Shown here piece after piece: positions 1,419-55,548 of a DNA stretch of 64,000 nucleotides (its first letter is position 1; each line of letters opens with the position of its first letter). The position numbers and the translations under genes are program-made. The DNA is from Marsupella aquatica (lineage: Eukaryota > Plantae > Marchantiophyta). The notes below the pieces were generated by a model. That model saw nothing but the letters and a program-made list of their open reading frames with translations. It ran no database searches and had not been told where the DNA came from. Location of the stretch: NCBI GenBank assembly GCA_973895155.1, contig OZ316891.1:25047899-25111898 (forward strand), read 5' to 3'.

Positions 1419-2526
1419 AAAACAAAAGACCACACTTATGTCACTTGCCTCTCCAACGGTTAATACGTGCAAACCGCACTTTTCTTCGCTTAAACCGTTG
1501 GTATCGTATTACGGGGTCGTGGAGGGACGCTATTTGGATTCTTTTCACACCAGGATGAGTATTTTGGTTTCCGCTCCCGGAAATGTAGGTTTTGATCAAG
1601 TCTACCGACTACCCTCACCCCACAGCTTTTGATCAAGTCCTGCCGACTACCCCACTACACCTTCACTCGGAGTCACCCAAAGAGTGCTGTCACCACCCCT
1701 ACTCACAAGGCCGACTCAAACCAAGCAAGTTTCTTCAAATCATAGAACGGGAGAACACAATTCGGAAAGCGAAAAAGGGAGAAGGAACACACAACAAAAG
1801 CCCATCAAGTCAAATGTACAGATCCATATCTCTTGGGAAAAATGATACACATTGCATGAGTAACCCGGCCTCCTGCCGTCTACTCAACTCCTGCCTCTCC
1901 GGACAATGAGTATGGCTCCCCCTCACTACTCTGAACACGCTTTCAAACTCCTCAGGCTCCACTCTATCCCTCCTTGCTAACTTCACACTGAGTCCCCCTA
2001 ACTACTGAAAAATCACACCAAAGCACCCCTCACAGGGTCACAACGGTGGCGGCTACCCTAGCGGCGCCGCTAAAACCTTGCACTAAGAGAAATCCTTAAA
2101 CTGAAGAGGAGCATGCGGCACACACATGCTGCTAAAACCCTAAACCCAAAACAAGGGGGCCGACGGTGCCTTCGACGGCGCCCCAACAGTACACGTGAAC
2201 CCTGAAAGTGAGAGGCACCCCAAAATGGCCGAAACTAGGTGCCCTTCCAAGTGCACACCTGAGCTCACCCCTGGATAGCTCTTCTTTTCCTGCTTCCGAA
2301 TCACTAAGTCGCTCCCTCAACGGACTTCAGACGCCTGAGTTATGGCCGTTTCCGTACCGCAAAAACATAAGTTCTCCAGGCCATAACTTGCTCATCCTGG
2401 CTCCGTTTGAGGAGCGCCGCCTCTTGTTGGAATCAGCTCCGCGAGCTCATCCCAACAAGCCCATGAGTGACCCCCCACTAAAATGTTGGAAATCTGGAGG
2501 CCGTACACCCACGTCCGTACGCCTAT

Positions 2527-4383
2527 CTAATCCTCCTCTTCTTCTTCGCTCTCGGTGCCCGGACTTGTGCCCCGTGAGTGGTCCTCCTCCTCATCACTCA
2601 CGGGAGTGAGTGCCACCGTACTTTTCTTCTTCTTCGACGGAGTACTCTTAGTGCTGCTGCTCCCGCGCTTCCTCAAAGCAGCCAAGGCCTGCCACGCCTT
2701 GATGTACCCCTCACCAATTGTGTCCTTCCAGAGGGTAGCCTCTTCTCCGGACCGCAACTCCAACGGTAGAACTTGCCCCGTGGCCATGGGAGTCCCGGGG
2801 GTGACAGACCTGGGTGGCATCCCCGTACTGACCTGAGCCTCCCGTAACGATTTCCGTACCTCCCGGAGCTTCTTCTCCAAGCTCTTACTCTTCTCCTGAC
2901 TCTTCTTGGCTCCATCCAACAAGGGTCCATACTTCCCACTAACCTCCTTCACCACCATCTCGATAGCTTGGGAGATCACATCCGGGGAAAGTGTGGAGCC
3001 AGGTGTGCCGGGACTCTTCCGTTTCCCTAGACTCAGGGCCTCACTTCTCTTCGCTCGTGTCTCAAAGGCTGCCACCTGACTCCGTAGTGCTCCCACCTGG
3101 TTCCTCCACTCCATCACTTCTCCAGAATTTTGCTTCTCTTTGGCCAATGCTTGCCTCAACGCTCCTACCTCGTCTGCGTCCTTGGCCTTGGTGGACAAAG
3201 CTCCCTTCAAGTTGGTGATCTCTACGTGAGCTGCATTGATGTGCCTGACCTTCTCATGAATGGTCTGCTCCTTGGTCTTGATCACCTCCTTCAGTGACAG
3301 GATGCTCTGCTCTAACGTCTCTACTTTGACTGTGGCGTGCTTGAGAGACTCCCTCAATGCGTGGACTAGCTTGAGTCCCTCGTGGACTCCCTCTCTGAAA
3401 TCCTGTAGCTCTGCCAAGTAAACATCCGGAATGTTGTATTCCAGAGGCTGTTTCGGATCTCCCACGAGTGATTCAAGCCACTCCAATGTGCAATCATCCT
3501 CCTGGTTCTCTTCTTCTCTATTATCCTCCCCACCAGCAGACAATGATTCCTCCGTGAGCTTCCCTAAAACGGTAGTGGCAATACTCCGGATCTCCGTGGT
3601 GAGAGATGATCCCGTGTCTTCATGCCCCGGAGAACCAATCAACCCTTCTGCCCTGGCCAATACAAATGACCCCATCAAATGTACAGCCCCACCTGGTTTC
3701 ACACTCCCGGGCTCAGCGGCCAATAGCTTCTTCAATCCGTAGCACCACCATCCGTACACATGGGCTGGGTAGTTCTTGATGTCCATAGCTACCACGAAAT
3801 GCTCCTCATTCAGCACTCCGGATTGCACGTTGCCAAGAACCCGTTGATGCACCTTGGCCAGGAAGCCCTTATACTCAACATCCTTGACAGCAGAAAGAGG
3901 GATGGCGGTGGTGGAGGTAGGATTGGTCACCCAAGTGGCCACCATTTTCAACGTGAGTTCTCCCCTGATATTCCGAGGTGTGAATGAGAATTTCTGATTC
4001 TCAAGAAACAATAGCTTAGCCAACTCCACATGGGGCACTACACGTTTGAGACATTCAAAGTAGATTCCCTCCGTTCGGAACTCCATCCCGGCCTCAATGT
4101 CCCAGCTCTTCCCTGAAGGGATGGTAATCTCCACCTTCATGAATTCTGTAAGCCCGGTGGCTTGGAAAATGTTCCGACAATCCTCCATCACCTTGGTGGA
4201 GGTCTTGGGATAAATTCGACGAAAAATCTTCCTACCCACCGGTGAGGAACCCGCTGCCAATCCCGTGCTCATCATAACTTCTCTCTCTTCCCTTTCCCGT
4301 GTAATCCGAGTCTCCACGTAGTCACGGTAAGCAGCCTTGTATCTCCGAATGCGTGACGCACTAAACTCTGGTTGATCTAGCAT
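2527..4383 (-). CDS. LTR-encoded 618-aa coiled-coil protein (family 1)
   Basis: Intact ORF; central heptad-rich region; basic KKKK followed by an acidic tail; IFQATGLTEFMKV resembles FMAGSGLEAFVRL in the family-2 LTR ORF. Confidence 0.75.
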   Translation of the reverse strand: MLDQPEFSASRIRRYKAAYRDYVETRITREREEREVMMSTGLAAGSSPVGRKIFRRIYPKTSTKVMEDCRNIFQATGLTEFMKVEITIPSGKSWDIEAGMEFRTEGIYFECLKRVVPHVELAKLLFLENQKFSFTPRNIRGELTLKMVATWVTNPTSTTAIPLSAVKDVEYKGFLAKVHQRVLGNVQSGVLNEEHFVVAMDIKNYPAHVYGWWCYGLKKLLAAEPGSVKPGGAVHLMGSFVLARAEGLIGSPGHEDTGSSLTTEIRSIATTVLGKLTEESLSAGGEDNREEENQEDDCTLEWLESLVGDPKQPLEYNIPDVYLAELQDFREGVHEGLKLVHALRESLKHATVKVETLEQSILSLKEVIKTKEQTIHEKVRHINAAHVEITNLKGALSTKAKDADEVGALRQALAKEKQNSGEVMEWRNQVGALRSQVAAFETRAKRSEALSLGKRKSPGTPGSTLSPDVISQAIEMVVKEVSGKYGPLLDGAKKSQEKSKSLEKKLREVRKSLREAQVSTGMPPRSVTPGTPMATGQVLPLELRSGEEATLWKDTIGEGYIKAWQALAALRKRGSSSTKSTPSKKKKSTVALTPVSDEEEDHSRGTSPGTESEEEEED

Positions 4384-4827
4384 CCATGCATCCCGAAATC
4401 AATTTCTCAATCACCAATCCCGTCACCCGTGGCAATGTCAATTCCCTGGCCCGAAACAGCCCCCGTAGCCCGATCACTTAAATTCTCTCAATTTCCCGTC
4501 ACTACTCCGTGCGGCCGCCACTAATGCCTGGAAGAATGACGCCAGCAAGCCCCACTAATCCACCATGAAAGAGAGAGCTTCAAAAATAATTAGAATCTGG
4601 AGAGAGCTTCCGGCAAGAGAGAGAAGAACCCCGTTTTTGCTTTCGGCAATGAGAGGGTCGTGCAAAAGGAAGAGGGAAAGAAAAAGGAAGGAAAAAAAAA
4701 TAGAACCGAAAAAACTCCTGGCGCCTTCGCCATGCGCCCCGGCCCATTTCTCGGGCCTTACCCTTGCGTCCTCCTGCGCGCGGCCCTATGCAGGGCGCGC
4801 GGCCATTCCTCCCGGCTCGCGGGAGGC

Positions 4828-5033
4828 CCTTCAACTCCCCCCCGCTCGCGTGATCCTCCCAGCTCGCGGGAGGCCCTTTAACTCCCCCCCGCTCGCGTGA
4901 TCCTCCCAGCTCGCGGGACCTCATTAATTGCCCGGGCACGCAGCCCTATGGGCTCGCGAGGCAGCCCCTTCAGCTCGCGGAGCCCCATTAATCGCCCGGG
5001 CACGCAGCCCTATGGGCTCGCGAGGCAGCCCCT
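4828..5033. repeat. Two pairs of GC-rich direct repeats (~40-47 bp) in the LTR, upstream of the ORF
   Basis: CCCCCCGCTCGCGTGATCCTCCCAGCTCGCGGGA x2 and GCCCGGGCACGCAGCCCTATGGGCTCGCGAGGCAGCCCCT x2. Confidence 0.85.
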
Positions 5034-5506
5034 CTTTCTCTCGGACGGCCACTAATGGGACTCGCCCTCCTGAGGAGGGATTTATTTAAAAAAAAACCCC
5101 CCCTCTCCTGACTTTGCAATGGGGGTCTCAACAATAGCTCTTGAAGCAAAACGGTAAGTCCTATGGGGCTGGTCCTGGCTAGTTTCAAGGTCCCAAAATA
5201 TTTGCCCACTTAGGTCGCCGCAAATCTTAGAACTATTATGAGAGAAAGAATATAAAGTCACCTGGGGCATCATCAACCTATAATGACGGAATTAACTAAA
5301 AATTAAAAAATGGCTTATTTACATTGACTATTAACAAGGTATCGGCCTTTGCAACCAGTTATGTGTGACTTCCCGTGACGGGGTACCCGTCACAATTCTT
5401 GGAATATTCCAAAAATTGGATTAAAAAGGCCCTAATGTTCTTATAAGTCTCAAAATTGAATTTAAAAGACCCTATTGTTCTTCTACAAAAATTCTTAAGT
5501 CTTCCC

Positions 5507-6819: not shown

Positions 6820-7050
6820 CAAACTCCACTCTGCTTTATGGGCTTACAGAACCACATAAAAAATTACCACCTTGAGAACACCATTCTACTTAACTTTTGG
6901 TATGGATAGTGTTACCCCCATTGAATTTGAATTACCTACTGAGCGGCTTCTGATCTCAGAAAGATTACTTGAGCCGGATAGCTTCCACATTAGGTTGGAA
7001 ACTCTAGATGAGTTAGAAGAGCATAGGCTTTTATCAGCCTATTCATTAAA
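6820..7050 (+). pseudogene. Gypsy integrase C-terminal fragment
   Basis: KLHSALWAYRTT*KITTLRTPFYLTFGMDSVTPIEFELPT, a typical post-core integrase segment with an in-frame stop. Confidence 0.85.
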
Positions 7051-8571: not shown

Positions 8572-8826
8572 AGAAAATATATCTGCATACTGATCATATT
8601 CATTGAGAAACCGTAAAGAGGAGATGGATACTGATACTGATGCTCTAATTGTTAAACTTGAAGTATAATTATACAGACTATATTATATCAAATTGATAAG
8701 GTCACATCGCTCAATCTAGACCTTGGCTAACAATGCGATCCATATTCATCAATCAAGATATCATCACCGAGTTCTTGTTGGATCTCATAATTGACATCGG
8801 AGGTACTCTCCTCTATCCAATAAGGT

Positions 8827-11800
8827 TGTGGTGCGTCCCATGGCTCCCTAAACCCAAGAAACCCCCCAGCTCAAGCCGATTCCCGCAGGTTTCGTGCTTG
8901 GCGAGGCCGTTTCCGCGGCTTAGCGGCATGGGACGCTGCTAACCTTCTACTACTACTATTAACATTTTACACACATATACTGGACAGATCCTTCATCGGG
9001 TCATGAGATACGTAGCCGGCCTAATATAGGCCTTCCCCTGTCTTCCCCTGTCTTCCCCTCCGTCTTGTTAGGTATGTTTGGATTCCGCCGCCGGAATGAT
9101 CCCCAATAGGCTTGGTTAAGCCGCTAAGACCTCTCTCAGCTCGACACATCCAACTCTCACTCCCCTGCTTACTTTCCTTCCTTCTGTTGATGTGGGCACT
9201 CTTCACACAAGTTAATGCGACACACAAATAGCAAAATGACTCATTCTGACTGAGTCATACCATGCACTTGCCATACAAACAGTACATCTCATACACAAGT
9301 TCTGCGAACTAAGCCGTGAGGCCAACTCTATTCAGCTCTTAGGCATGAGGAAACATGAATATACACAAGGGTCACTGTATGACTAACCGAGAGCTTCTCG
9401 TACTACTTGATCCCAGCCCGGCTGGTGCAAACTAAAAACTTGCTAAAGAAGAGGCCCTGAGCTCCCCGCTGCCCAGGTACTTATCCTGGTAGTGGATCCG
9501 TCATTCTTTGCATCGTAAGCCTAATCTACTTAACAGTAATCTACTTGCCCGAATCTACCTATGTACAGCAAGGCAGGAGCACAAGTGTTGCTCCTACCAG
9601 TGGGACCGCAATCCCACTAAGCTAAGTGTCAAGGCCGCTCCTGGTTCTGATCCTAATCCTAAACGTGGAGATCCGCGCCCGCCCTACCCACTCACGCCTC
9701 CTCCCTCCACGTCCGCCCTCCCTAAAAGGAATGGCGCCCTTGCACCGTCACGACACCGGTGGTGGATCCTCAATGGACGCCCCCAACACTTCCTCCTCAG
9801 CCACTGCCGTTGGCCCGCCTACTGACAGATTACCTGCCCTTGACCGAGTCAACTCTCCCTCGGCCTGACTGGGTCCACCTTCGGCTTCAGCCTCGACACC
9901 GGCCTCGGCAATACCCACGGCTTCGGCCTCAGCCACTCCCACGGCTTCGGCTTCAGCCACTCCCTCGGCTTCGGTCTCAACCACCCCCACGGCTTCGGCC
10001 TCCCCTTCCCCTAGGGTAGTTGGATCCTTAGCCGTGACCCTGTCTGGGGTCGGTGCTGGGTCTACCTCCTTGATCACCACGGCCTGTGAAGTCGTATTAC
10101 TCCTTGACCCTGAAGGTTTCCGCTTCTTCTTTGTTGGTGGCTCGGCAGCTGGTCCCTTCCCCTTCCCACTTACTTCCGGCACTGGTGCAGGTGGCGCGGC
10201 TTGTCCTTCGGCAATTACCACCCCTGGTAACTGGTTTGTCCCAACGGGAGATGGACCTGTTGCAGCTAAGCATTTAAATACTGCGGCTTGTTTCTTTAGC
10301 CACTCTGTTTGGTTGTCGGCCCGCCGCTGTAGGTTCTCCATCTTCCTCGTGATTTCCTCCAACTCCTCTTGGGTTTCATCCAGGTCCTTACGTGCCCCCT
10401 CCAGCTCGTTTTTGGCCTCCTCCTGCTCCTTGTGGGCTTCCTCCAATTCCTTCTTCAAGGTAGCCCTCTCCTCCTGGGTTGCTCTTAGCTCCTTGTCGAG
10501 CTCTGCAATGATGACAGACTCCATCTGGTTTATCTTGGCGTAAGTCTGTTCGAGCATCTCGTCCTTCTCCCTTAGGTCGGCCTTGAAGCTGGCCGTCAGG
10601 GACGCAAGCTCCTGCTGCAGCGCCATAATCCCTTGATAGGATTTCCCTAACTCGACCTCCTTCTGCTCAAGGGCTCCGCGGATTTTCTTGAGCTCCCCTT
10701 TCAACGCCCATTCCTTTCTTTGGGTCTCCGCCATGGCCCGGCTGTTGGCTGTTATGTGGGCCTCCTCTGTATTCTTCAGCTCTTGCTTCCACTTCTCCCT
10801 CTCTTTGATCGTGTCGGCCAATTCTTCCTGCGTCTGAGTCAGTTTATCCTTGATATTCTGATTATCAGCCTGCGCGGTGTCCAACTGCCCCTGCATGATG
10901 TTCAGCTCATGTCGTTTAATCCGCAGTTCATCTTGGGCTTTCTTGGCCGCCCTTAGATCTTCAATCTCGGCTTCCATCCTCCTAAGCCGCCGAATGACCT
11001 CGTCCTTCTTGCTTCTCTCTAAAGCCACCGCTTCTTCTAATTGGTGCTTCTCCAACTGCTCCCTATGGAAAAAGGGTCCTACCTCCAACTCCTCTCCAAA
11101 GATGCCGAGCGCAAGTTCCCCACACATCTCACCATACTCCATGGCTCTATTCTTAGCGTAGGTGGAGTAAGTAGAAGTGATCGGCATCGCCCATCGTGGC
11201 CTCTGCTCCCAAGCCGTCCTGCGGATCTCTTCAATCGTGGCTAGAGGTTTGCTTCCTTTTTCGGCTAGCCGCCTAATGTCCTCCGGCCAATCTCCTCCTG
11301 GTAAATCCTTTTCCTTAGCCAGGGCGGCCTCTTCCTCCTGCTTGATTCGCTCCTGAAATTCCTGCACCGTCTGTTTTATGTCGTCGAAGCTCGGGGGAGC
11401 AACATCTGGTGGGGGAGACTCAGGGCTACTCTGCTGGTTGGGGTCCCCTCGCACTACCCTTGGAAGTGTGGGGACAAACCGGCCACAGGTCCTTACTCCT
11501 GGAACGTGATGGTCCGACCCATAGCCGGAATTATCATGGCTGCAGTCCTCCACTGCCTCCTCTACCTCTTGGACGTCCGGCTTCTCCCTCTCCTCTTCCT
11601 TGGTAGGAGCTTCAGGCAATTCTGCCTCAGATTTGGAGCTTGAGGTTCCCACGTACATTCGAACACCTGGCTTGGATTCCGGCCTGATTCTCTCCTTGTC
11701 TCCAGCAAAGGGGTTTTCTCTTGTGAGCCGGTGTAGGCCTACCTCTGTAGTAGTGTCCTGCATTGTTGCCGTTGCCGTTGTTGTTGCCGATGCCGATTTC

Positions 11801-13510
11801 TTTTCTTTCTCCAGTAGTTTCAGCAGACTCTGCATGCCTGGTTGCTGCATCGGCAAGTCTTCCTTCCTGGGCCTAAACACCTGCTCGATCGTAGGACTAA
11901 CAGGTGGTTGAGGCTTCTCAGCCAACGGCCTCGGCGTTGGAGCTTCCTCGGGTGCCCTTACCTGCAGGGGAAGTACCGGGGCAAAAGTCTGACCTCTGGC
12001 ATACCGGCACAACAGCGGCATGTGATAGCCAAGCCGCGACACGCTCCCCATGCCGATTACCTGCTGCTCCTCCTTTAAGATCTTCTTCAATTGGTTGAGG
12101 AGGTACCCGTTGTAGTCCCGGCTTGGGTCTGGCCTTTCTGCCAGATAGACCTGTGCCTTGCCGATCTCTGCCCTCGGCAAGTTACAATGCATGGTCACCC
12201 GCAAGAAGTCGATCATCTCTCCTATGTGCGGGTTGGTGCAGGTGTTCCGGAAGAAGCCATTCTTCGTTGATGGCCCGGGGAACGACCGGAACTCCTTGTC
12301 AGGCAAGGTCTTCCTGGTATCAACTTTGGTCTTATTGCCTATCGGCAGGCCAAACACTTCGGCAATTACCTTGGGAGTAAGATAGAAATCCTTCCCATAT
12401 ATCCTCGTGCAATTGGTCTCGGGTTCCCATGACCCCACGAATTCTAATAGGTCTGACTGCGGTACCTCCGGCTTCAGCCATGGTAATCTTACAAAGGCCT
12501 CCAAGCCGGATCCGGCCATGAAGCCTTGGTACTTCTTGGTCTGCATGGCCGTAAAGCATGCATCCTCCTCCCGTGCAAAATGTAGTTGCACCTCCACCGG
12601 TAGGGTTGCCGCCCAGCCCTTCCAGGTGTCATCCCTGGTTGGAATGGCCTTGATGGGATCGACCTCCTCCTCTTCGGCTTCTCCCTGCCTCCTGCTCTGC
12701 TGCTCGGCTGGCTTCTTTGGTGCCGCCGACCTCGTTCTTTTTGCCGGGGTGGCTTCATCGTTGACGGCTCCCTTCCTCTTCATCTCTGCTGCCGTGGAGG
12801 TTTCTCCTAGCACCGTTGCCTGGGTCCACCTTTCCGTGCTACCCTTTAATTCCCAGTGTATGTCGTTGCAGTTCTTGATGGCCTCTCGGATGCCGACGAC
12901 GCTGTCTTTGCAAAACAGAAGATCGTCGAGTTGATTGGAAGTAGGCGTCCATAGGAACTCGTCCTTGATGAGTTTGCCTCCTAAGAAAGCCGTCTTCTGC
13001 AGCTCCCACAATCGAGCGAGCTCCTGCCGTTCTCGAGCTGCCCTTTCTGACTCCTCGTCCTCGTAAGTCTTGATGTACTCAGTTGCCCGTTCGAACAGGC
13101 ATCCCCAGAAATGTGCCGCTTGATTGACGTTGCTCATACCCTCCTTAGGTCGATCGTCGGTATCAATTCTCTCCCCGAGTGCTTGCCTAAGCAGCTGACA
13201 GTAGTTGGCCTCCCGTAGTCGTCTGCCTAGTTCGTGCTCGCAAATGAGCCACCATCTCCTGCAAGCGCTCCTTACCCCTCTCCTCTGCCGGTCCTTCTTC
13301 CCGTTGATCCTTCCTAGCCGCCGACGCTTAACGCGCCCTAACCCTAATCGGGTTTTCACCCTCAGCCTTACCTCCGGCCTCGGCCCGGGTTCCATGGTTG
13401 CCCCTAATTGTTTATATTTTCCTTGTTTTGTCACTATACTAAGGTGTTCCTAGGGTGCCTTCCTGCTTTACCCACTTAACCGGCCGAGTGATTCCTGTCT
13501 AGGCATCACA
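8827..13510 (-). repeat. 3' LTR of element A (4684 bp)
   Basis: Direct repeat of 16949-21656; TG...CA termini; adjacent PPT. Confidence 0.95.
9748..13434 (-). CDS. LTR-encoded ~1215-1228-aa protein (central plant-transposon domain plus long coiled coil)
   Basis: Intact ORF wholly inside the LTR; first ATG at 13395 in ACCATGG context; IYGKDFYLTPKVIAEVFGLP segment; ~250-aa heptad region; KKKRK. Confidence 0.9.
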   Translation of the reverse strand: MTKQGKYKQLGATMEPGPRPEVRLRVKTRLGLGRVKRRRLGRINGKKDRQRRGVRSACRRWWLICEHELGRRLREANYCQLLRQALGERIDTDDRPKEGMSNVNQAAHFWGCLFERATEYIKTYEDEESERAARERQELARLWELQKTAFLGGKLIKDEFLWTPTSNQLDDLLFCKDSVVGIREAIKNCNDIHWELKGSTERWTQATVLGETSTAAEMKRKGAVNDEATPAKRTRSAAPKKPAEQQSRRQGEAEEEEVDPIKAIPTRDDTWKGWAATLPVEVQLHFAREEDACFTAMQTKKYQGFMAGSGLEAFVRLPWLKPEVPQSDLLEFVGSWEPETNCTRIYGKDFYLTPKVIAEVFGLPIGNKTKVDTRKTLPDKEFRSFPGPSTKNGFFRNTCTNPHIGEMIDFLRVTMHCNLPRAEIGKAQVYLAERPDPSRDYNGYLLNQLKKILKEEQQVIGMGSVSRLGYHMPLLCRYARGQTFAPVLPLQVRAPEEAPTPRPLAEKPQPPVSPTIEQVFRPRKEDLPMQQPGMQSLLKLLEKEKKSASATTTATATMQDTTTEVGLHRLTRENPFAGDKERIRPESKPGVRMYVGTSSSKSEAELPEAPTKEEEREKPDVQEVEEAVEDCSHDNSGYGSDHHVPGVRTCGRFVPTLPRVVRGDPNQQSSPESPPPDVAPPSFDDIKQTVQEFQERIKQEEEAALAKEKDLPGGDWPEDIRRLAEKGSKPLATIEEIRRTAWEQRPRWAMPITSTYSTYAKNRAMEYGEMCGELALGIFGEELEVGPFFHREQLEKHQLEEAVALERSKKDEVIRRLRRMEAEIEDLRAAKKAQDELRIKRHELNIMQGQLDTAQADNQNIKDKLTQTQEELADTIKEREKWKQELKNTEEAHITANSRAMAETQRKEWALKGELKKIRGALEQKEVELGKSYQGIMALQQELASLTASFKADLREKDEMLEQTYAKINQMESVIIAELDKELRATQEERATLKKELEEAHKEQEEAKNELEGARKDLDETQEELEEITRKMENLQRRADNQTEWLKKQAAVFKCLAATGPSPVGTNQLPGVVIAEGQAAPPAPVPEVSGKGKGPAAEPPTKKKRKPSGSRSNTTSQAVVIKEVDPAPTPDRVTAKDPTTLGEGEAEAVGVVETEAEGVAEAEAVGVAEAEAVGIAEAGVEAEAEGGPSQAEGELTRSRAGNLSVGGPTAVAEEEVLGASIEDPPPVS

Positions 13511-13978
13511 TAGCTCCCCACTTAATTGTGAAGCGTCCTCGCGAACAACTTCATCTTCGTCCATATAGTATTTCTTGAGGCGGTCATAATGGATGCGAAC
13601 TGGATATACCTCTCCCGTAATGTTGGCCAATTGTACGGAGCCATTGGGGAACATCATGGTTACTCTAAAGGGTCCTAACCAGCGAGTGTAAAGCTTTCCT
13701 GGAAACCTACTATACCTACTGTCATAAAGTAGCACAAGATCACCGGTATGAATACTAACTACTTTTAACCTTTTATCATACTGCTGCTTCATGATATTCT
13801 GTCTATATTCTACTCTCTCGGCTTCTAATAGGGCCTCAATTTGTTCTGCCCTCGTAATCGGCTTGTATGCCGATCCCTTGGTATTTAATTCCTTGCCGAT
13901 GATCAATGGCGTTGTGGACCCCGTCGGCTCTGCCACAACGCCTGCAGAAAATCCACTGTCCCTGCTACTGCTCCCCAC
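13499..13978 (-). pseudogene. pol: Internally deleted pol (N-terminus fused in frame to the integrase C-terminus)
   Basis: Essentially identical to both ends of 38587-41853, with 929 codons missing. Confidence 0.95.
13511..13524 (-). promoter_or_regulatory. Polypurine tract, element A
   Basis: TAAGTGGGGAGCTA immediately 5' of the 3' LTR on the minus strand. Confidence 0.8.
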
Positions 13979-16879: not shown

Positions 16880-16926
16880 TACCTACGCTTCCGTTCTAAC
16901 TTCATATCTCACGGCTTAAGAAATGC

Positions 16927-16944
16927 CCCCTCCATCTAGCGCCA
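16927..16944 (-). promoter_or_regulatory. Primer binding site, element A
   Basis: TGGCGCTAGATGGAGGGG, 4 nt after the 5' LTR; cognate tRNA not assigned. Confidence 0.85.
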
Positions 16945-16948
16945 AAAA

Positions 16949-27439: not shown

Positions 27440-27827
27440 CACTAGAAGAAAACATGGCCCTTCATGACCAACCGCCCAATGACGGAAATGCATAAATGAC
27501 CTAAATTCTCAATGACACAAAATGAATGACCGGAGAATGACTGTCCAAATTGACCAATAGACTTGAATGACAAAATGATTGTTTTTGCGTCATTTTGTAA
27601 AATGTCTGTAATGACTAATATGACCAATGACACAATTTTCTTAAAATGGTCAATTTAGACATATGTCCTAAATGACGCAACCAATCACCACAATGATAAA
27701 TCAGTGTTTAGCACCATTGTAGTCACTTTGGACAATGATTAAAATGACCAAAAACCTATTTGGGTCATTTTGGACAACAATAATAAATGACAAAAAACCT
27801 GTTTGTCATTTTAACCGATGGTGCTAA

Positions 27828-33863: not shown

Positions 33864-33938
33864 CTGTAATATAACCCAAGCAAGGTATGTCAATGGATGC
33901 ATTTGTAGACAATTTTTTAACGGCAAACCAGATGTCAC

Positions 33939-41853: not shown

Positions 41854-44753
41854 TTAGCCGTTTCATCCAATTGGTATACATCCTTTACTTCCTCCGGAAT
41901 TGCAGCTAAAAAGGTGGATTCTATTGTAAAGCAGTCCTCGACCTCTTCGTCTTCTTCTTCCAAGTCACCTTCCATTGGTTCTTGCCATAATCCGCTGGGG
42001 GGTACCTCTGGTCCAAAGACACCTTCTTCGGTTAGGTTAGTGAGGCATTCTAACCAACGTACTTCATCGGCTGACTCCAGTCCACTATCGTACCCATCTA
42101 CTTCCCTTATGCTTTTCCTACGGTCATCCTTAGTGTCCCAGGATACCGTGATAGAGGGGGTCCCGAAAGTGAACTACTTTTTACCCCAATCTTCTATTAC
42201 CTCGGCTAGGTACAGCCATGGCCTACCAATCAATAGCCGGAATGACGTAGGATTTACCGGCTTCATTACTACATAGTTAATGCTAAAGAAGATACCTCCT
42301 ATCTCTGTCTTGATGCCGGTTAACACTCCCGTCGGAATGACCTGATATCCATTGGCCATGTTCAACACTCTTCCAGTCATCTCCGGTGTTAGACCCCACC
42401 CTTTTGCTGTTGAATCAATCATAATACATACCCCTGATCCTCCATCGATGGGTACCCGTAGTAATAATTCTCCTTGAATCATTAATGGTAATGCTGGGGC
42501 TCCTTGATCTTCTTCTATCATTAGTACGTCGGATCTGGTTGCTACCTTGGGTAATCTCGGCTTGCCGAGAATAGCCTTCCTTAATTGCTTCCGGAAGTAC
42601 GGGCTATTTTTCAATAGTTGACCTACTATTGCCGAGACTCTAGATTCTAGTACATCTTTAGCCAGGTCATAGGGAACAATCGGCTTCTCTTCTGGTGGTG
42701 TTTCCGTCTTGGATTCGGCCAGTTTTGCCACGCTAGTCTCCACAACTGTTGGGTCTTCCGAAGCAAACAATGCTTTTGCTCGTTTTACATCCTTGGCAAT
42801 GGCTTCGGTATTCTCTAGGGTTTCTAATTCTCTTAGTTGTTCCTTAACACTAGCCGTAACAGAGGGGTAGAACAACTTAGGATGATCTCGATTGAAGTCG
42901 CTATCTTGTGAAGGATTGGTTTCACTGGTGGGCTCATGGCTTACCTGTATTGCCGGAGCCCTCCCTTCTCCTTCTGTTGATGTTGACGAAGAGTCGATCC
43001 TTTCCTCCGTAACCTTCCCTTTATTTTTGGCCAGCCCATCCCACCTTTCCTTCCTTCTGGTAGATCGAGTAGAGACCCGGTAGCAATCATGATCTAAATC
43101 CTCCTCTGAGAAGGTTGATAGGGCTTCGGCCTCATCATCAGATGGTATGAACTCTGCCTCGGCATCCTCTTGCCATCCTAGTTCGATGTGGTTGATTTGA
43201 ACTCCTCCGGGGGTAGTACCTGGCGGTAAGATCTTGATCGGCAAAAGCTTATGATTTGCGGCCAGGCCTGCCAACCAAGTAGGACATTGACCTAGCATAT
43301 GACCTTCCTGTCGGCATCCCATACATAGCTGAGCTGGTTGTCCATCACCCTGTTTGCGTGCATTCGGGCATTCTCTAGCAAAATGGCCAGGTTGACCATA
43401 ATTATAGCACGCCGCAAATCTTTGCACATTCGGCCTAGGAGGTACTGACGGGTTCTGAATAATCCGAGGATACATCTCTCCTGGATTGTTCCTTAACCCT
43501 GACCACAGAGATGCAGGTCTGTTGGATAGGTCTCGTGCTCCAGTCTCACTGATGCCGAAAACACTATCAGCGGCATCTCCCAAAAAGTACTCTACTTCTC
43601 CCTGACATGGTCTGATCTCGGCCACATGCCGAACATGATTAGTATTAAGCTTAGGACACGCATCTTTATGGTGTCCGGTTTTATAACATAAGGCACACCA
43701 TACAGAGCTATCCTCCTGTACTACCTTCTTCTTTGGTTTTACCTCTGCAATGATAGCCTTAAGTTGCTCGGTAAGGGCTACGATGTTATCTGGTGGCTTA
43801 GCCTCCATCTTGACTTTCGTCTTCCCTCTCCTTCTGCCTTTCCTTTTCCTAGTTTTTTCTTCTTCAGAACTAGAAGATGACTCACTCTTGCTACTCCCAC
43901 TATCCGAGCTTGACTTATCACTTCTAGACTTCTTGGAATGTTTCTTCTTCTTATCTTTTTTCTTATGGGGTGATCCCTCCTCTGATGAGGAACTCTCAGA
44001 CTTAAGCTGTTTCTTCCGGCTTGTGATATCTGCATTAATGTATAATTGAATATCCTTAATTGCTTCGGCTAAAGTCTCCGGGTTCTCCTTCCTAATTGCA
44101 AAACTCATCTTCTGTGGCAAAGCATTCACCAACCATTGAAGTTGCATACCTTCAGATGCATTGGTCTTTGTACGTCTTACCAGTTTCTGAAAGCGTTGCA
44201 AGAACTTCCTGAAGGATTTGTTCTCCTTGAACCGAAGTTGTCCCAACTTCAGCACTGCTAGTTCTGAAGTTCCAATGGGTCGAAACTCCTTAACAAAGAG
44301 TGTTTTGAAGATATCCCAGATGGCTTGATCTTCCACATCTAATGCTCTGTACCAAGGCCTAGCCTCACCCTTGAACAGGCCGGGAAGAATCTGCATCTTG
44401 ATGGCCGATTCTCCATTTGCTGCAGCGGTTCCCTCGAAATCATCCAACCATTCGTCCGGATCCTCATCTCCTCTCCCATGAAATGCCTTGTAATGTATGC
44501 GCGACCGCTGGCTCAATCTGGTCCCTGGCCTCTCGTCTGGCCGTGCCTCTGGTTCCCCCATGTCGGTTGGAGACTCACTTCTCCTTACCGACTCTTCTTC
44601 TGGTATGTCTTCTTCGACGCCACTTCCAGTTTCGGAGCTACCAACTCTTTCTGCCCCTCTCAGTCGCTGTGTATCATGCCACCCGGCGAGCTGCTGCAGT
44701 CGAGCTCTCTCCCATTGAATCACTCTTTCTTCCCTCGGCGTAAGGTCAGTCAT
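41760..44753 (-). CDS. gag: gag-protease of element B, with a premature TAG at 42174-42176
   Basis: 859-aa ORF plus an in-frame continuation to 41760; element A has CAG at the stop position. Zinc knuckles and PIDGGS. Confidence 0.92.
41770..41829 (-). promoter_or_regulatory. Putative -1 programmed ribosomal frameshift signal (copy in A at 13895-13954)
   Basis: G GAU UUU in correct phase, 5-nt spacer, perfect 10-bp stem GGCGUUGUGG/CCACAACGCC, and loop GCCGA complementary to a downstream UCGGC. Confidence 0.8.
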
Positions 44754-44800
44754 TACCTACGCTTCCGTTCTAACTTCATATCTCACGGCTTAAGAAATGC

Positions 44801-44818
44801 CCCCTCCATCTAGCGCCA
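44801..44818 (-). promoter_or_regulatory. Primer binding site, element B
   Basis: TGGCGCTAGATGGAGGGG, 4 nt from the 5' LTR. Confidence 0.85.
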
Positions 44819-44822
44819 AAAA

Positions 44823-47800
44823 TGTGGTGCGTCCCATGGCTCCCTAAACCCAAGAAACCCCCCAGCTCAAGCCGATTCCCGCAGGTTTCATGCTTGGCGA
44901 GGCCGTTTCCGCGGCTTAGCGGCATGGAACGCTGCTAACCTTCTACTACTACTATTAACATTTTACACACATATACTGGACAGATCCTTCATCGGGTCAT
45001 GAGATATGTAGCCGGCCTAATATAGGCCTTCCCCTGTCTTCCCCTGTCTTCTTGTTAGGTATGTTTGGATTCCGCCGCCGGAATGATCCCCAATAGGCTT
45101 GGTTAAGCCGCTACGACCTCTCTCAGCTCGACACATCCAACTCTCACTCCCCTGCTTACTTTCCTTCCTTCTGTTGATGTGGGCACTCTTCACACAAGTT
45201 AATGCGACACACAAATAGCAAAATGACTCATTCTGACTGAGTCATACCATGCACTTGCCATACAAACAGTACATCTCATACACAAGTTCTGCGAACTAAG
45301 CCGTGAGGCCAACTCTATTCAGCTCTTAGGCATGAGGAAACATGAATATACACAAGGGTCACTGTATGACTAACCGAGAGCTTCTCGTACTACTTGATCC
45401 CAGCCCGGCTGGTGCAAACTAAAAACTTGCTAAAGAAGAGGCCCTGAGCTCCCCGCTGCCCAGGTACTTATCCTGGTAGTGGATCCGCCATTCTTTGCAT
45501 CGTAAGCCTAATCTACTTGCCCGAATCTACCTATGTACAGCAAGGCAGGAGCACAAGTGTTGCTCCTACCAGTGGGACCGCAATCCCACTAAGCTAAGTG
45601 TCAGGGCCGCTCCTGGTTCTGATCCTAATCCTAAACGTGGAGATCCGCGCCCGCCCTGCCCACTCACGCCTCCTCCCTCCACGTCCGCCCTCCCTAAAAG
45701 GAACGGCGCCCTTGCACCGTCACGACACCGGTGGTGGATCCTCAATGGACGCCCCCAACACTTCCTCCTCAGCCACTGCCGTTGGCCCGCCTACTGACAG
45801 ATTACCTGCCCTTGACCGAGTCAACTCTCCATCGGCCTGACTGGGTCCACCTTCGGCTTCAGCCTCGACACCGGCCTCGGCAATACCCACGGCTTCGGCC
45901 TCAGCCACTCCCACGGCTTCGGCTTCAGCCACTCCCTCGGCTTCGGCCTCCCCTTCCCCTAGGGTAGTTGGATCCTTAGCCGTGACCCTGTCTGGGGTCG
46001 GTGCTGGGTCTACCTCCTTGATCACCACGGCCTGTGAAGTCGTATTACTCCTTGACCCTGAAGGTTTCCGCTTCTTCTTTGTTGGTGGCTCGGCAGCTGG
46101 TCCCTTCCCCTTCCCACTTACTTCCGGCACTGGTGCAGTTGGCGCGGCTTGTCCTTCGGCAATTACCACCCCTGGTAACTGGTTTGTCCCAACGGGAGAT
46201 GGACCTGCTGCAGCTAAGCATTTAAATACTGCGGCTTGTTTCTTCAGCCGCTCTGTTTGGTTGTCGGCCCGCCGCTGTAGGTTCTCCATCTTCCTCGTGA
46301 TTTCCTCCAACTCCTCTTGGGTTTCATCCAGGTCCTTACGTGCCCCCTCCAGCTCGTTTTTGGCCTCCTCCTGCTCCCTGTGGGCTTCCTCCAATTCCTT
46401 CTTCAAGGTAGCCCTCTCCTCCTGGGTTGCTCTTAGCTCCTTGTCGAGCTCTGCAATGATGACAGACTTCATCTGGTTCATCTTGGCGTAAGTCTGTTCG
46501 AGCATCTCGTCCTTCTCCCTTAGGTCGGCCTTGAAGCTGGCCGTCAGGGACGCAAGCTCCTGCTGCAGCGCCATAATCCCTTGATAGGATTTCCCTAACT
46601 CGACCTCCTTCTGCTCAAGGGCTCCGCGGATTTTCTCGAGCTCCCCTTTCAACGCCCATTCCTTTCTTTGGGTCTCCGCCATGGCCCGGCTGTTGGCTGT
46701 TATGTGGGCCTCCTCTGTATTCTTCAGCTCTTGCTTCCACTTCTCCCTCTCTTTGATCGTGTCGGCCAACTCTTCCTGCGTCTGAGTCAGTTTATCCTTG
46801 ATATTCTGATTATCAGCCTGCGCGGTGTCCAACTGCCCCTGCATGATGTTCAGCTCATGTCGTTTAATCCGCAATTCATCTTGGGCTTTCTTGGCCGCCC
46901 TTAGATCTTCAATCTCGGCTTCCATCCTCCTAAGCCGCCGAATGACCTCGTCCTTCTTGCTTCTCTCTAAAGCCACCGCTTCTTCTAATTGGTGCTTCTC
47001 CAACTGCTCCCTATGGAAAAAGGGTCCTACCTCCAACTCCTCTCCAAAGATGCCGAGCGCAAGTTCCCCACACATCTCACCATACTCCATGGCTCTATTC
47101 TTAGCGTAGGTGGAGTAAGTAGAAGTGATCGGCATCGCCCATCGTGGCCTCTGCTCCCAAGCCGTCCTGCGGATCTCTTCAATCGTGGCTAGAGGTTTGC
47201 TTCCTTTTTCGGCTAGCCGCCTGATGTCCTCCGGCCAATCTCCTCCTGGTAAATCCTTTTCCTTAGCCAGGGCGGCCTCTTCCTCCTGCTTGATTCGCTC
47301 CTGAAATTCCTGCACCGTCTGTTTTATGCCGTCAAAGCTCGGGGGAGCAACATCTGGTGGGGGAGACTCAGGGCTACTCTGCTGGTTGGGGTCCCCTCGC
47401 ACTACCCTTGGAAGTGTGGGGACAAACCGGCCACAGGTCCTTACTCCTGGAACGTGATGGTCCGACCCATAGCCGGAATTATCATGGCTGCAGTCCTCCA
47501 CTGCCTCCTCTACCTCTTGGACGTCCGGCTTCTCCCTCTCCTCTTCGTCGATAGGAGCTTCAGGCAATTCTGCCTCAGATTCGGAGCTTGAGGTTCCCAC
47601 GTACATTCGAACACCTGGCTTGGATTCCGGCCTGATTCTCTCCTTGTCTCCAGCAAAGGGGTTTTCTCTTGTGAGCCGGTGTAGGCCTACCTCTGTAGTA
47701 GTGTCCTGCATTGTTGCCGTTGCCGTTGTTGTTGCCGATGCCGATTTCTTTTCTTTCTCCAGTAGTTTCAGCAGACTCTGCATGCCTGGTTGCTGCATCG

Positions 47801-49458
47801 GCAAGTCTTCCTTCCTGGGCCTAAACACCTGCTCGATCGTAGGACTAACAGGTGGTTGAGGCTTCTCAGCCAACGGCCTCGGCGTTGGAGCTTCCTTGGG
47901 TGCCCTTACCTATAGGGGAAGTACCGGGGCAAAAGTCTGACTTCTGGCATACCGGCACAACAGCGGCATGTGATAGCCAAGCCGCGACACGCTCCCCATG
48001 CCGATTACCTGTTGCTCCTCCTTTAAGATCTTCTTCAATTGGTTGAGGAGGTACCCGTTGTAGTCCCGGCTTGGGTCTGGCCTTTCTGCCAGATAGACCT
48101 GTGCCTTGCCGATCTCTGCCCTCGGCAAGTTACAATGCATGGTCACCCGCAAGAAGTCGATCATCTCTCCTATGTGCGGGTTGGTGCAGGTGTTCCGGAA
48201 GAAGCCATTCTTCGTTGATGGCCCGGGGAACGACCGGAACTCCTTGTCAGGCAAGGTCTTCCTGGTATCAACTTTGGTCTTATTGCCTATCGGCAGGCCA
48301 AACACTTCGGCAATTACCTTGGGAGTAAGATAGAAATCCTTCCCATATATCCTCGTGCAATTGGTCTCGGGTTCCCATGACCCCACGAATTCTAATAGGT
48401 CTGACTCCGGTACCTCCGGCTTCAGCCATGGTAATCTTACAAAGGCCTCCAAGCCGGATCCGGCCATGAAGCCTTGGTACTTCTTGGTCTGCATGGCCGT
48501 AAAGCATGCATCCTCCTCCCGTGCAAAATGTAGTTGCACCTCCACCGGTAGGGTTGCCGCCCAGCCCTTCCAGGTGTCATCCCTGGTTGGAATGGCCTTG
48601 ATGGGATCGACCTCCTCCTCTTCGGCTTCTCCCTGCCTCCTGCTCTGCTGCTCGGCTGGCTTCTTTGGTGCCGCCGACCTCGTTCTTTTTGCCGGGGTGG
48701 CTTCATCGTTGACGGCTCCCTTCCTCTTCATCTCTGCTGCCGTGGAGGTTTCTCCTAGCACCGTTGCCCGGGTCCACCTTTCCGTGCTACCCTTTAATTC
48801 CCAGTGTATGTCGTTGCAGTTCTTGATGGCCTCTCGGATGCCGACGACGCTGTCTTTGCAAAACAGAAGATCGTCGAGTTGATTGGAAGTAGGCGTCCAC
48901 AGGAACTCGTCCTTGATGAGTTCGCCTCCTAAGAAAGCCGTCTTCTGCAGCTCCCACAATCGAGCGAGCTCCTGCCGTTCTCGAGCTGCCCTTTCTGATT
49001 CCTCGTCCTCGTAAGTCTTGATGTACTCAGTTGCCCGTTCGAACAGGCATCCCCAGAAATGTGCCGCTTGATTGACGTTGCTCATACCCTCCTTAGGTTG
49101 ATCGTCGGTATCTACTCTCTCCCCGAGTGCTTGCCTAAGCAGCTGACAGTAGTTGGCCTCCCGTAGTCGTCTGCCTAGTTCGTGCTCGCAAATGAGCCAC
49201 CATCTCCTGCAAGCGCTCCTTACCCCTCTCCTCTGCCGGTCCTTCTTCCCGTTGATCCTTCCTAGCCGCCGACGCTTAACGCGCCCTAACCCTAATCGGG
49301 TTTTCACCCTCAGCCTTACCTCCGGCCTCTGCCCGGGTTCCATGGTTGCCCCTAATTGTTTATATTTTCCTTGTTTTGTCACTATACTAAGGTGTTCCTA
49401 GGGTGCCTTCTTGCTTTACCCACTTAACCGGCCGAGTGATTCCTGTCTAGGCATCACA
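44823..49458 (-). repeat. 5' LTR of element B (4636 bp)
   Basis: Differs from the 3' LTR by 9-bp and 15-bp deletions and scattered SNPs. Confidence 0.97.
45720..49382 (-). pseudogene. LTR ORF split by the same TAG stop (47910-47912)
   Basis: 490-aa and 717-aa ORFs, as in the 3' LTR. Confidence 0.9.
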
Positions 49459-49477
49459 GTCACGATGAGAAATTTAC

Positions 49478-50181: not shown

Positions 50182-50332
50182 CTGTTCAAGTGGATATCGA
50201 CGTGATACCCGTCAATAAAGAGACAACGACAATGCTAACGCCCAGTGCTGGCCAAACTATCATAAGACTTGGCCTTAAATATACATCTTTCCAAGTAATA
50301 AATACCAATTCAGTTTCTAAAACGTTGACTCT

Positions 50333-51737: not shown

Positions 51738-54700
51738 TGTCATGCCGCTAACCTGGGCCTTAAATCCAGTTTAGTGTCATGGTGCGACCTCGACCACCAG
51801 TAGGGGTGAGGGTTCGGGCAAGGAGGTGTGCAGTGACCTCTATTAGCCCTAAGTCGGGCTAAGTCGATAGACTTACTGGTATAACACCTGCGTAATTCGT
51901 ACTAGTCATAGGTATATTTGTTTTCCATCGCTGGAATATTCCCTCAGTTAGTGACTCGGACTAACTCCCGGCTTGGGGCCTTTCAAGCCATCGACACGAC
52001 AGGATCTTGTGACATACAATGAGTGGCAATCCCTACCATTAGTTCGCACCCGGTACGTCCCTTAAAATGGCGCCTTTACCCAGACAAAGCATACACACAA
52101 CACCAGTTACTTGCGGAAACATTAGGGGGAAAAGACTACATTTATCAGCGAAGCATCAGTTTACATGGTTGACTCGACTTCAAAGGGGGTCAGCAGGCCC
52201 AACGGCAGTCGATGCCCAGTCTCTACGAGGCCCTGCCTCGCACTTGCCCAGCAAGCTCGACTCTGGCTCTCACTCCTTGGTGTGCTCTGACCCTGCTCAG
52301 GCCGGGACTCCCCGTGCCTCACCTTTCTTCTGTTGAGATAACTAAGCCTTCTCCCCGGACCATAGCGGAAGGGGAAGCCTAAATACTACAATCGTGGAGG
52401 AGAGCCGGAGGATACTGCCTTCTGGGATACTACCTACTGACTAAATTACCTACTGACTACTGGCCGCGCCGCACTGACTGGTTGACCGTCAACAACAAGG
52501 TGCCGACCGGGATGGCAGCGGCCAAGCCTACTGACAAATTCTAGTCCATTGATGGACTCCATCCTACGTTGGCTGATCCTAACTGATCCGGCCCTAATTC
52601 TTCTTACTGCCGCTAATCGGCGCCTAATGACAGTCATGCTGCCGTTACGCCTAACCAAAAGATGCCGCTGACTTAACTGCCTCACGCGGCGCCTGCTTCC
52701 ACCCTTTGCTAACCACCCCTTACGTGTGTGCAGTGGTTGGACCAGGGCTGGTCCCCTTGTCGGGACGAGACCTCGAGCCGCCTTGATCAGAGGTGGGCCT
52801 AGGTTTTCTCCGCTGGAGGATGAGCAGGGTAATGCGGTCCTGCAAGGCCTTGTTGTCCCGTACCGCCTCCTCCGCCTCATTTGCAGCTTCATCGGCTTCG
52901 ATCTGGAGCCGCGCTACCTCCAGATTGAGTTGGTCGATGGAGTTGCGATGGATCTGGTCCTGCGCCAACAATTTATCTCGTTCGGCGGAGAGACTAGCCA
53001 CCTGTTGTGCTGCCTGCAAGAATTGTTTGTTGAGGTCGGTCAAGCTGGTAACCCGAGCCGAAGATTCTAAGCGTAATTGAAGCACGGTGTCATCCAGCTT
53101 CTTGAGTTCGGCCTGCGCTCCGCTTAACTCTTGGGTTAGTCCGTCCCTCTGTTCGACGGTGCAGACTAACTCCTCGCGGCGGGTTGTTGCCTCCTCCTCG
53201 AGGTGCTCTACCAGCATATGGAGGCGCCCGATCTCATTCCCCTTCGCCATGAGTTCTTCTTCCAAGCGACTTACGATCCGTGGTTGGTGCTCTAACATGA
53301 AGAAGGCTGGTTGAAATTACGCCGAGACTTGTTGTCCGATGTATGTTGCCAGCTCCCCAGACATAGTCTGGCTAAACTTTTGGACTAGGTCGTAGGCCAT
53401 GGTCCCCGGGGCTACTTGGTAGTCCTCCATCCTCTCGGGTATCGGTGGGTCCTCGGGTGGAGCAACGATCTCCTCTGTAGTCAGCGCTGGGGAGGGGAAG
53501 ATATCTTCAGGTGGTGGAGGGATTGGGGGTGGTTGTACTGCGGGTAGTGGAGGCTCAACAGAAGGGGGCGGCGGAATTTCCACAGGAGGAGGTGGCGGAG
53601 TATTAGTCGGGGCTTCCGGCTTGGGGTTTGCCCGAGGGACGGTAGTCCGCGTGCTCGGGGTTGCCTCCTCCGGGGCGAGGGTGACTTTAGCCGAGGCTGA
53701 GGTGGCCATATTCTTTCCTCAAGCCTCTCGCCGTGCCTTGTACCAGGCGAGGATAATGGCGATATGACTTCCTAAGTAAGTCTTCCCCCCAATAGCCATA
53801 CCACCCTGAGCCCGCTTCAGCTCCCCCAAGAATCTTTGGTAGAAGAATTGGGCCCAGTTTCATCGTTTGTACTGTTCCACCTGCACGATCGTGCAGAGGG
53901 AAATCTCGGATCGTGGCTCAATCATGTGTAGGGTAGTCCGTATGAAGTTAAGCCGCTCCATACAGGTTAAGTTGGTGCATGCCCCTTGCTTGTATCCGTT
54001 GTCCATCTTACCCTCGGGTTTGAAGTGCCGCGGCGTATACTCCTTATCCCGAATTTGGATTTCCACCGGCACTGGCCCGGTTGGTAGGCAGAAGATTTGC
54101 GTTAACCGATGCTCCGTGAGTGATAAGGCCTACCCCGAAACCTTGGTGGTCGACGCGTCAGTGTTGAAATTGGAGATAAACTCACAAATCTTCTTCGGCC
54201 CGGTGGCGCACGGCCTCCAAAGCAAGTGAGCGAACTGCTCCAACTGATGCTCCTTTAGATAGTCCGCATGTTCGAGTTTCTTGATTGCAATCCAGACTAC
54301 TTCGGGGACGCGGATTACCTGTAATAAGTTGGACTTCGGGTTATCCGGGGGCCGTCGGGTCTGGTTGGTCGGGGGGTTTACCGGGGCAGGTGCAGGCGCG
54401 GCGTTGGTCCGCGTTGTTGATTTGGGGGCCGTCGTAGTCCTTGGCCGCTTACGAGGACGCTGTTTGAGTTGCGGACTAGCTTCCTCGGAACCCGAAGAAC
54501 ACTTTGTGTTGATTACTGGACGGACTTGGCACTGGTGGTATCGGGGTAGCCATATCCCAGTTGAAGGTGTTGGAGCTTTCCCCGAGGAACGTAAGATTAC
54601 GCGCCGCTTCCCGTTGTTTGCTGATGTCTTCTTGGCGCTTTTCGGCTGCGATCTGCTGGTCTAGGTACCCTGGAATCTTGTCGAACTCCGCTTGAGTAAG

Positions 54701-55548
54701 CCGCTGGCTGCCCTTTAGCTTAAAGAACTTCGCTGGAACCTCAAGAATCGCCTCAGCTACTGATCTAAGCCCTTCCTCGCTGAGATATAGTTTGGTGATG
54801 TAGTCTCGCAGCTCGTTGTAGCTGGAATCCTTGGTGATGGCTGTCCTTTCGCAATTAACCAGTGCTACCTTGGTCACTAGCTTCGCGTATCTTCGTTCGT
54901 AAGCGGCTTTCTCGGGACAAGAGTACCAGTAAGTTTCGGAGAACTTAGCACCTACCTCGCCAAACAAGGTCCAAAATCCCAAGGCTGTGAGGGTCATACT
55001 AACCTCATAGTCCGGTTTGAGTCCGCGTTCCCACCCGGCTGGTCCTCTTTCTCGTGGAGGCCTCGCTCGTCCTGACTAAATCTCGCCACATTCCGCTCTT
55101 CTCCCTCGATAATCTCCTTGTAAAGGTCGACTCGATTCGATCAGCAGGGCAAGTGGGTGGCAACGTCCGCGAATTCAAAAAAGGGTAGACATGAGCAAAT
55201 GGCCCGCAGCACCATCGGCTCCTCTCTTATGGAGGTGTCAGGATGAGCCCGAGCGTGAGAAGGCCAGGCCGTTTTAGTCATTGATAACAAGCTGAAGTCG
55301 GCACCTCGGTCCAAGCGTGATTCTTCTAACTGATTTTTACTCCGCTGCCGCCACCGTACCTCGGTCGTGCGTAATAATCCTCTTCCTGAACTCATAATTA
55401 TTCGGTCATTTTAACCTACTCCTAATCTATTCATAATGGCAACAGACGGCTACATGTGCTATTCTACGCTATGGCTACGGTCCTAATGCCCGTATAAGGC
55501 CTAATCTACGACCTGGGTTCCGTTAAGTGACACGTTACCCGTGTCACA
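51738..55548 (-). mobile_element. Solo LTR (3811 bp), family 3
   Basis: TGT...ACA termini with an AGGGT TSD on both sides; no gag or pol. Confidence 0.92.
52720..54997 (-). pseudogene. Decayed LTR-encoded ORF, family 3
   Basis: NGYKQGACTNLTCMERLNFIRTTLHMIEPRSEI aligns with family-2 NGFFRNTCTNPHIGEMIDFLRVTMHCNLPRAEI; Pro-rich linker; coiled coil at 52720-53298. Confidence 0.85.

Follow-up and report, generated by a model that had tools for sequence, protein, structure and literature searches.

The DNA analysed here, referred to as the window, is a stretch of 64,000 nucleotides (nt) from the liverwort Marsupella aquatica (contig OZ316891.1, positions 25,047,899 to 25,111,898). It contains sequences of three families of Ty3/gypsy retrotransposons whose long terminal repeats (LTRs) hold a large open reading frame (ORF) in sense direction. 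The structural evidence is confined to this 64-kb window, and all features of the elements lie on its minus strand. The layout of a sense gene internal to the LTR holds for families 2 and 3 and is likely for family 1. Family 2 is represented by two elements, A and B, and by the remains of an older LTR (aa stands for amino acids, RT for reverse transcriptase and TSD for target-site duplication):

33939..49458, minus strand: element A, full-length Ty3/gypsy element of 15.5 kb, TSD GTGAC on both sides
44823..49458, minus strand: element A 5' LTR, 4,636 nt; ORF with ATG at 49343, premature stop at 47910-47912 and final stop at 45720-45722
44801..44818, minus strand: putative primer-binding-site-like TGG motif of element A, 4 nt past the 5' LTR
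42174..44756, minus strand: element A gag-zinc knuckle-protease ORF, terminating at a premature stop absent from element B
38587..41853, minus strand: element A RT-RNase H-integrase ORF; stop at LTR nt 10-12, 103 nt ahead of the ATG of the LTR gene
38599..38611, minus strand: polypurine tract of element A, within the final integrase codons; it immediately precedes the 3' LTR and is upstream of the extra gene
33939..38598, minus strand: element A 3' LTR, 4,660 nt; ORF with ATG at 38483, premature stop at 37050-37052 and final stop at 34860-34862
8827..21656, minus strand: element B, with a 2.78-kb pol deletion and a frameshift in gag, lacking a TSD; gene intact in each of its LTRs
17870..21541, minus strand: intact LTR gene in the element B 5' LTR, 1,223 aa from the first ATG
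9748..13395, minus strand: intact LTR gene in the element B 3' LTR, 1,215 aa from the first ATG
26256..27440, minus strand: piece 1 of an older, fifth family-2-like LTR; the gene's C-terminal part, 70% identical in amino acids
5892..6814, minus strand: piece 2 of the older LTR; gene end and 3' core, 85-87% DNA identity

Element A displays all characteristics of a Ty3/gypsy element, namely a TG..CA LTR pair, a primer site, a polypurine tract and a TSD. Pfam matches to gag, RT, RNase H and integrase follow one another in this order, and the protease, which had no Pfam match, was identified by reading the sequence. The pol ORF, with its stop inside the LTR, gave no Pfam match to a chromodomain or an additional RNase H (aRH), fitting a non-chromovirus element of the Tat Z1/Z2 or Athila type. 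The gag-protease and RT-RNase H-integrase ORFs occupy separate, overlapping frames (41770-41853, minus strand). The overlap contains the heptamer GGATTTT, followed 5 nt on by a 10-bp stem (z -2.7), and, with a heptamer of the type that acts at such sites, resembles a -1 ribosomal frameshift signal; the same spot is also readable as a splice acceptor. Liverworts contain Tat Z1/Z2 elements without aRH (PMC10508981; PMC13468544), and gag-protease fusions were reported for flowering-plant Tat lineages only (PMC4408406).

The four family-2 LTRs (8827-13510, 16949-21656, 33939-38598 and 44823-49458, corresponding to 4,684, 4,708, 4,660 and 4,636 nt) are 0.4-1.1% apart (0.41-1.11%) and all have the termini TGTGATG..CACCACA. 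Each carries a sense ORF of about 1.2k codons with its ATG at LTR nt 116. The TSD, the primer motif, the polypurine tract and the position of the ORF together identify the repeat as a true LTR with the gene wholly inside. An earlier note on this DNA had reported an ORF in every LTR. These ORFs are present, but in family 2 the gene is intact in only two of the four copies, where, counted from its first ATG, it encodes 1,215 and 1,223 aa; the note had missed that both LTRs of element A share a premature stop at codon 478, just past the core domain of the protein. This common stop shows that a change in the gene region reached both LTRs and fits copying of the gene into both of them.

In the 1,215-aa protein, the core domain (approximately residues 255-475) is followed by a coiled coil of about 260 residues (approximately 777-1039) and a lysine run at 1089-1092. 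Coiled coils were called by a crude score. By hydropathy, no membrane-spanning stretch was detected, the highest 19-residue Kyte-Doolittle means being 0.98 and 1.09. The long coiled coil described in the earlier note was recovered, in family 2 as well as near the gene end of family 3. The terminal lysine run ascribed to families 1 and 2 is terminal in family 1, but in family 2 it lies about 125 residues ahead of the C-terminus.

Family 3 is present as a solo LTR:

51738..55548, minus strand: family-3 solo LTR, 3,811 nt, TSD ACCCT on both flanks
52720..55075, minus strand: broken family-3 LTR gene; core domain at 54315-53734, coiled coil near the end

The solo LTR starts with TGTGAC and ends with TGACA, and in its decayed gene the frame is interrupted by four stops and shifts at least once. 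The boundaries behind the reported LTR lengths of 4.64-4.71 kb (family 2, four copies) and 3.81 kb (family 3) were thereby confirmed, with TSDs for element A and for family 3. The DNA of families 2 and 3 gave no match better than E 0.05, yet the proteins align (tblastn E 2e-14). A core-domain profile that combined family 2 with 19 outside proteins and left out family 3 matched family 3 at 54315-53734 with an E value of 1.4e-40, and the claim of similarity at the protein but not the DNA level therefore stands.

Family 1 is represented by a single LTR at the edge of the window:

1439..5394, minus strand: family-1 5' LTR, 3,956 nt, single copy in the window; 5' end placed at a TGTGAC-hairpin start, as in family 3
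2527..4383, minus strand: family-1 LTR gene, 618 aa, with coiled-coil segments and a terminal lysine run
4807..5034, no strand assigned: GC-rich tandem units of 47 nt and 64 nt, upstream of the family-1 gene
1401..1418, minus strand: family-1 primer-site-like motif, 20 nt beyond the proposed LTR end
2..1207, minus strand: family-1 gag, 51% identical to family-2 gag across 174 aa, running off the window

An LTR of 3,956 nt agrees with the approximately 3.96 kb given before, but no second copy or TSD stands behind its ends. The primer motif is presumably of the tRNA-Asp type. Given the 20-nt gap to this motif, the 3' end of the family-1 LTR may be slightly misplaced; primer sites were sought 0-5 bp from the LTR in PMC6317226. 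In a comparison with public runs, which covered window positions 1-4660, contigs of two runs bridged the gene stop and the LTR core without difference, and those of one run bridged the start and the leader, likewise without difference; the window itself may derive from one of these runs. The contig depth of the family-1 gene relative to gag (2.09, 1.39 and 1.07 in three runs) is not a copy number and was not used.

The ORF lies wholly within the LTR in families 2 and 3, and likely so in family 1. From its stop to the LTR 3' end there are 921 nt in family 2, 981 nt in family 3 and 1,088 nt in family 1, in agreement with the distance of 0.9-1.1 kb noted earlier. The longest LTR ORFs had 1,241 and 623 codons, compared to maxima of 363 and 317 codons in 200 shuffles each. 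The first 25 nt of the LTRs (from 5394, 21656 and 55548, minus strand) consist in all three families of a TGTGA start with a hairpin from the second base. The stems are perfect over 8 bp in families 1 and 3, where 0 and 5 of 200 shuffles, respectively, were as stable; the hairpin of family 2 is weaker, with 18/200 shuffles as stable.

Evidence for selection on the gene was obtained from the older family-2-like copy. Compared to family 2, NG86 gave a dN/dS of 0.32 (p 2.5e-13, 342 codons), and a transition-aware ratio of 0-fold to 4-fold sites was 0.48 (p 0.0006). This older LTR copy of the gene shows purifying selection. Its best-conserved part is the 3' core, with 10.8% divergence, below that of its 0-fold coding sites. 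NG86 values of 0.21-0.61 among the young copies were dropped as evidence, as they arose mostly from transitions and the signal was gone in the transition-aware test. Only the older-copy comparison and the conservation between families 2 and 3 at the protein level were counted as evidence of selection. Taken together, the data support that a gene under selection sits entirely inside the LTR, is doubled in each element and is kept in a solo LTR. As the earlier note had proposed, the gene is found in both LTRs of the family-2 elements and survives in the solo LTR of family 3.

Searching 1.84 billion representatives with the core domain (approximately 255-475) yielded 21 matches at E <= 0.001. Nineteen of these were looked up, and the four with a name all belong to the leafy liverwort Calypogeia fissa. 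The core alignment of 20 sequences excludes P0007 and P0021 (repeat-driven) and P0020 (short) and includes P0029. In Calypogeia fissa, one homologue is present as at least six nearly identical gene models (P0023 and P0032-P0036), with two sets on one contig in mirrored arrangement; this pair was not accepted as an LTR pair, the accession order being mirrored. No Pfam family matched the core domain, and a sequence search of the PDB returned no relative of it. Word-based searches were likewise empty for the family-2 core (proteins of 668-2,127 aa) and for the core profile (proteins of 1,379-3,935 aa), and neither two metagenome scans nor one scan of viral contigs, with RT, revealed a locus or relative. 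Neighbours in a language-model atlas include clusters of Transposase_32 (0.88) and ATHILA (0.87), which are leads only.

An AlphaFold model of the core domain was compared to 48,161 PDB representatives. The best match was VANC21 on DNA (9LNK), with a Z score of 5.2, a root-mean-square deviation of 4.7 and 168 aligned residues spanning model positions 12-235. It was the sole match at Z >= 5; the second-best reached Z 3.0 over 79 residues. In such comparisons, a Z under 8 may reflect a common arrangement. Foldseek found nothing at E <= 0.001 for the core model in the PDB or BFVD, and a re-check of 147 chains was also empty. We give the predicted fold match to VANC21 moderate weight, since it extends over the domain, is well separated from all others and concerns a plant transposon accessory protein.

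For family 1, a relation of the protein to those of families 2 and 3 is less apparent. Against the core profile, the family-1 ORF obtained a hidden Markov model score of about 0, and hhalign gave a probability of 2.8%, on a 24-column N-terminal motif. Its profile alignment beat 150/150 shuffles (z 3.25), but one of 38 unrelated control windows scored higher. A family-1 model guided by family-2 rows was poor (pLDDT 44), and VANC21 was absent from the best 50 matches listed. An atlas cluster of 72 members and 279 aa ranked first for family 2 (0.91) and third for family 1 (0.84), again as a lead only. A word-based search of proteins of 113-361 aa with the family-1 core found nothing.

The best reading of the protein is a predicted PMD/VANC-like domain joined to a coiled coil. 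This combination occurs in extra ORFs in the interior of Tat elements; in the window it would lie in U3. Under the standard replication cycle the gene would fall in U3, because the polypurine tract precedes it: plus-strand synthesis would begin at the tract upstream of the gene, which would be copied to both LTRs in each round. On the genomic RNA the extra gene would follow pol, and placing the tract ahead of the gene instead of behind it would suffice for duplication. The start of the genomic RNA would lie past the gene, in the core of 0.9-1.1 kb, and the gene would be expressed from an RNA of its own or a subgenomic one, by which even a solo LTR could supply the protein in trans. By analogy with VANC, which binds motifs and demethylates its own elements (PMC5735166), the core domain would bind LTR DNA, the coiled coil would oligomerise the protein, and silencing of the family would be eased, also in trans. 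The lysine runs and the absent membrane stretch were counted in favour of this reading. We favour, with moderate confidence, the interpretation that these are Ty3/gypsy elements whose LTRs hold a complete gene for a predicted nuclear DNA-binding protein of VANC/PMD fold that would counter host silencing.

Several results weigh against this interpretation. The fold match has 7% identity, its Z of 5.2 is under the 7-8 that is typical of a best score without a clear match, and the core model reached a pLDDT of 68 from 20 sequences. Pfam profiles of PMD (PF10536), DUF1985, Transposase_32 (PF20167) and ATHILA (PF03078) gave no match in the window ORFs or in any of the 20 alignment members. The guess of the earlier note at a nuclear anti-silencing factor gained independent but middling structural support from VANC21, while the PMD, Transposase_32 and ATHILA profiles it had named remained unmatched. 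The LTR cores contain no clear TATA box that would mark a start. Tandem motif arrays are absent from the non-coding LTR parts of families 2 and 3, unlike VANC targets, and occur in one of the three families, family 1. The selection test on the older copy spans only the coiled coil and the C-terminal part, and the six pairs of young copies had 0-fold/4-fold ratios of 0.39-1.35, with no significant selection (all p > 0.1). Finally, element A propagated with its gene cut at codon 478, and the full protein is therefore dispensable in cis.

The gene may instead be a genuine, selected LTR accessory gene with another job, such as RNA export, particle assembly or integration steering, with the VANC21 match due to a common helical arrangement or a re-used fold. 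[quoted passage not shown] However, of 48,161 chains the only one to exceed Z 3, aligned over nearly the whole domain, belongs to an accessory protein of a plant transposon, and language-model neighbours, a separate method, also indicate plant transposon accessory families. We regard another job as rather unlikely, although it is the most credible of the alternatives. A different location would follow if transcription started near the LTR 5' end and the gene lay in R/U5 as the first gene of the genomic RNA, similar to the 5' extra ORF of Ogre. A TATAAA about 20 nt ahead of the family-2 ATG and the 1-kb GC-rich, repeat-bearing leader of the family-1 gene would agree with such a start. Under the standard cycle, however, it would require that U3 be confined to 115 nt in family 2 and that the first cDNA reach about 4.5 kb by the time of strand transfer, and in the older copy it is the 3' core that is most conserved, as expected for promoter, R and U5; we consider this location improbable.

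It appears very unlikely that the LTR gene is a passenger, such as a fragment from a Mutator-like DNA transposon which inserted into an LTR and has been copied without serving the retrotransposon. VANC and some PMD genes do belong to DNA transposons (PMC5418596), the young copies evolve neutrally, and element A was mobile with a cut gene. Yet terminal inverted repeats around the gene were found in none of the three LTRs, the gene has the same location in families 2 and 3 though their DNA no longer aligns, and purifying selection was detected against the older LTR copy.

Other parts of the window contain repeats and transposon remains. An integrase-like remnant of another gypsy element in opposite direction (6821-7039, plus strand) adjoins the split old LTR. 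Beside element B, amid transposon remains, lies an ORF of 414 codons that encodes an NLI-interacting-factor phosphatase domain (E 2.5e-15; 7438-8682, minus strand). The insertion site of element A is coding-like (33297-33959 and 49460-50185, minus strand), its downstream piece having a weak N6_N4 DNA methylase match below cut-off (E 9.5e-5). A satellite of approximately 570-nt units forms two blocks (28558-31188 and 61950-63640), and an 83-nt tandem array occupies 27825-28248. At 55780-60744, several ORFs with lengths of 200-350 codons are spread over the two strands; the five that were scanned gave no Pfam match above cut-off, and the ORFs are likely remains of DNA transposons.

The protein class is probably known, while its position inside the LTR appears to be undescribed for plants. 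Extra ORFs of Tat/Ogre elements (PMC4408406, PMC6317226, PMC5418596) resemble the present case in belonging to non-chromovirus-type gypsy elements, in joining a globular domain to a coiled coil, and in the gag-protease fusion and very long LTRs, but they are described from an end of the element, 5' or 3', outside the LTR, whereas here the gene is in both LTRs and in a solo LTR and has no PF10536 match. Tat lineages IV and V have ORFs with PMD and coiled coil, and none were seen in lineages I and II or in moss Tat-like elements (PMC4408406). LTRs of non-chromoviruses reach about 5 kb, and Phygy/Selgy interiors are almost entirely polyprotein (PMC6317226); Retand ORFs are internal and antisense (PMC11963269). 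The env-like ORF of Athila (PMC7264820) is likewise a sense gene directly after pol, and ATHILA and Transposase_32 are among the atlas neighbours here, as leads. It is located between pol and the 3' LTR, however, while in the window the tract lies upstream and the gene is duplicated, with no membrane stretch and no PF03078 or PF20167 match. Rice Retrosat2/RIRE3 (PMC3485330) share LTRs of > 3 kb and a fast-evolving extra ORF, but their ORF0 is upstream of gag-pol, and LTR and ORF0 are treated as distinct parts.

LTR-internal genes are known in mouse mammary tumour virus (MMTV) and lentiviruses, where sag and nef are protein genes in the 5' part of the LTR (PMC2664473); these are vertebrate retroviruses with unrelated proteins, and the MMTV LTR has 1.3 kb versus 3.8-4.7 kb here. 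VANC21 of VANDAL21 (9LNK; PMC5735166), the best structural match, is also a transposon accessory protein with a coiled coil, but belongs to Mutator-like DNA transposons of dicots and shares 7% identity; motif arrays occur here in family 1 only, and VANC-like binding and demethylation would apply by analogy alone. VANC resembles the PMD protein MAIN in structure (PMC13547354; bioRxiv 2024.09.27.615353), and PMD-A clades are gypsy-encoded in angiosperms (PMC5418596). Passages of PMC3485330, PMC12885004 and PMC9289625 held no precedent for the layout, and a search of main texts in an open-access library found no account of plant LTRs with a full accessory gene inside.

In plants, LTRs are usually regarded as non-coding sequence, and a solo LTR as a dead end. 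The LTRs described here, 3.8-4.7 kb long, contain a gene that reaches 1,223 codons, and an LTR-LTR recombination that removes the element would leave the accessory gene behind. If the fold match is true, it would assign a testable function to the extra ORFs of Tat and Athila elements, which are unexplained, and provide a retrotransposon counterpart to VANC, and it would bear on whether PMD originated in retrotransposons or host genes, called open in PMC5418596. More tentatively, it is possible, though we would not call it probable, that the oldest land-plant elements of Tat/Athila type carry a VANC/PMD-fold anti-silencing gene in U3, so that each LTR, including a solo LTR, would be a self-contained unit able to reactivate the family in trans; the fold would then date back to retrotransposons of early land plants, and genes hidden in LTRs may partly explain why early Tat lineages were reported to lack extra ORFs. 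As liverworts are easily transformed, the anti-silencing idea is directly testable.

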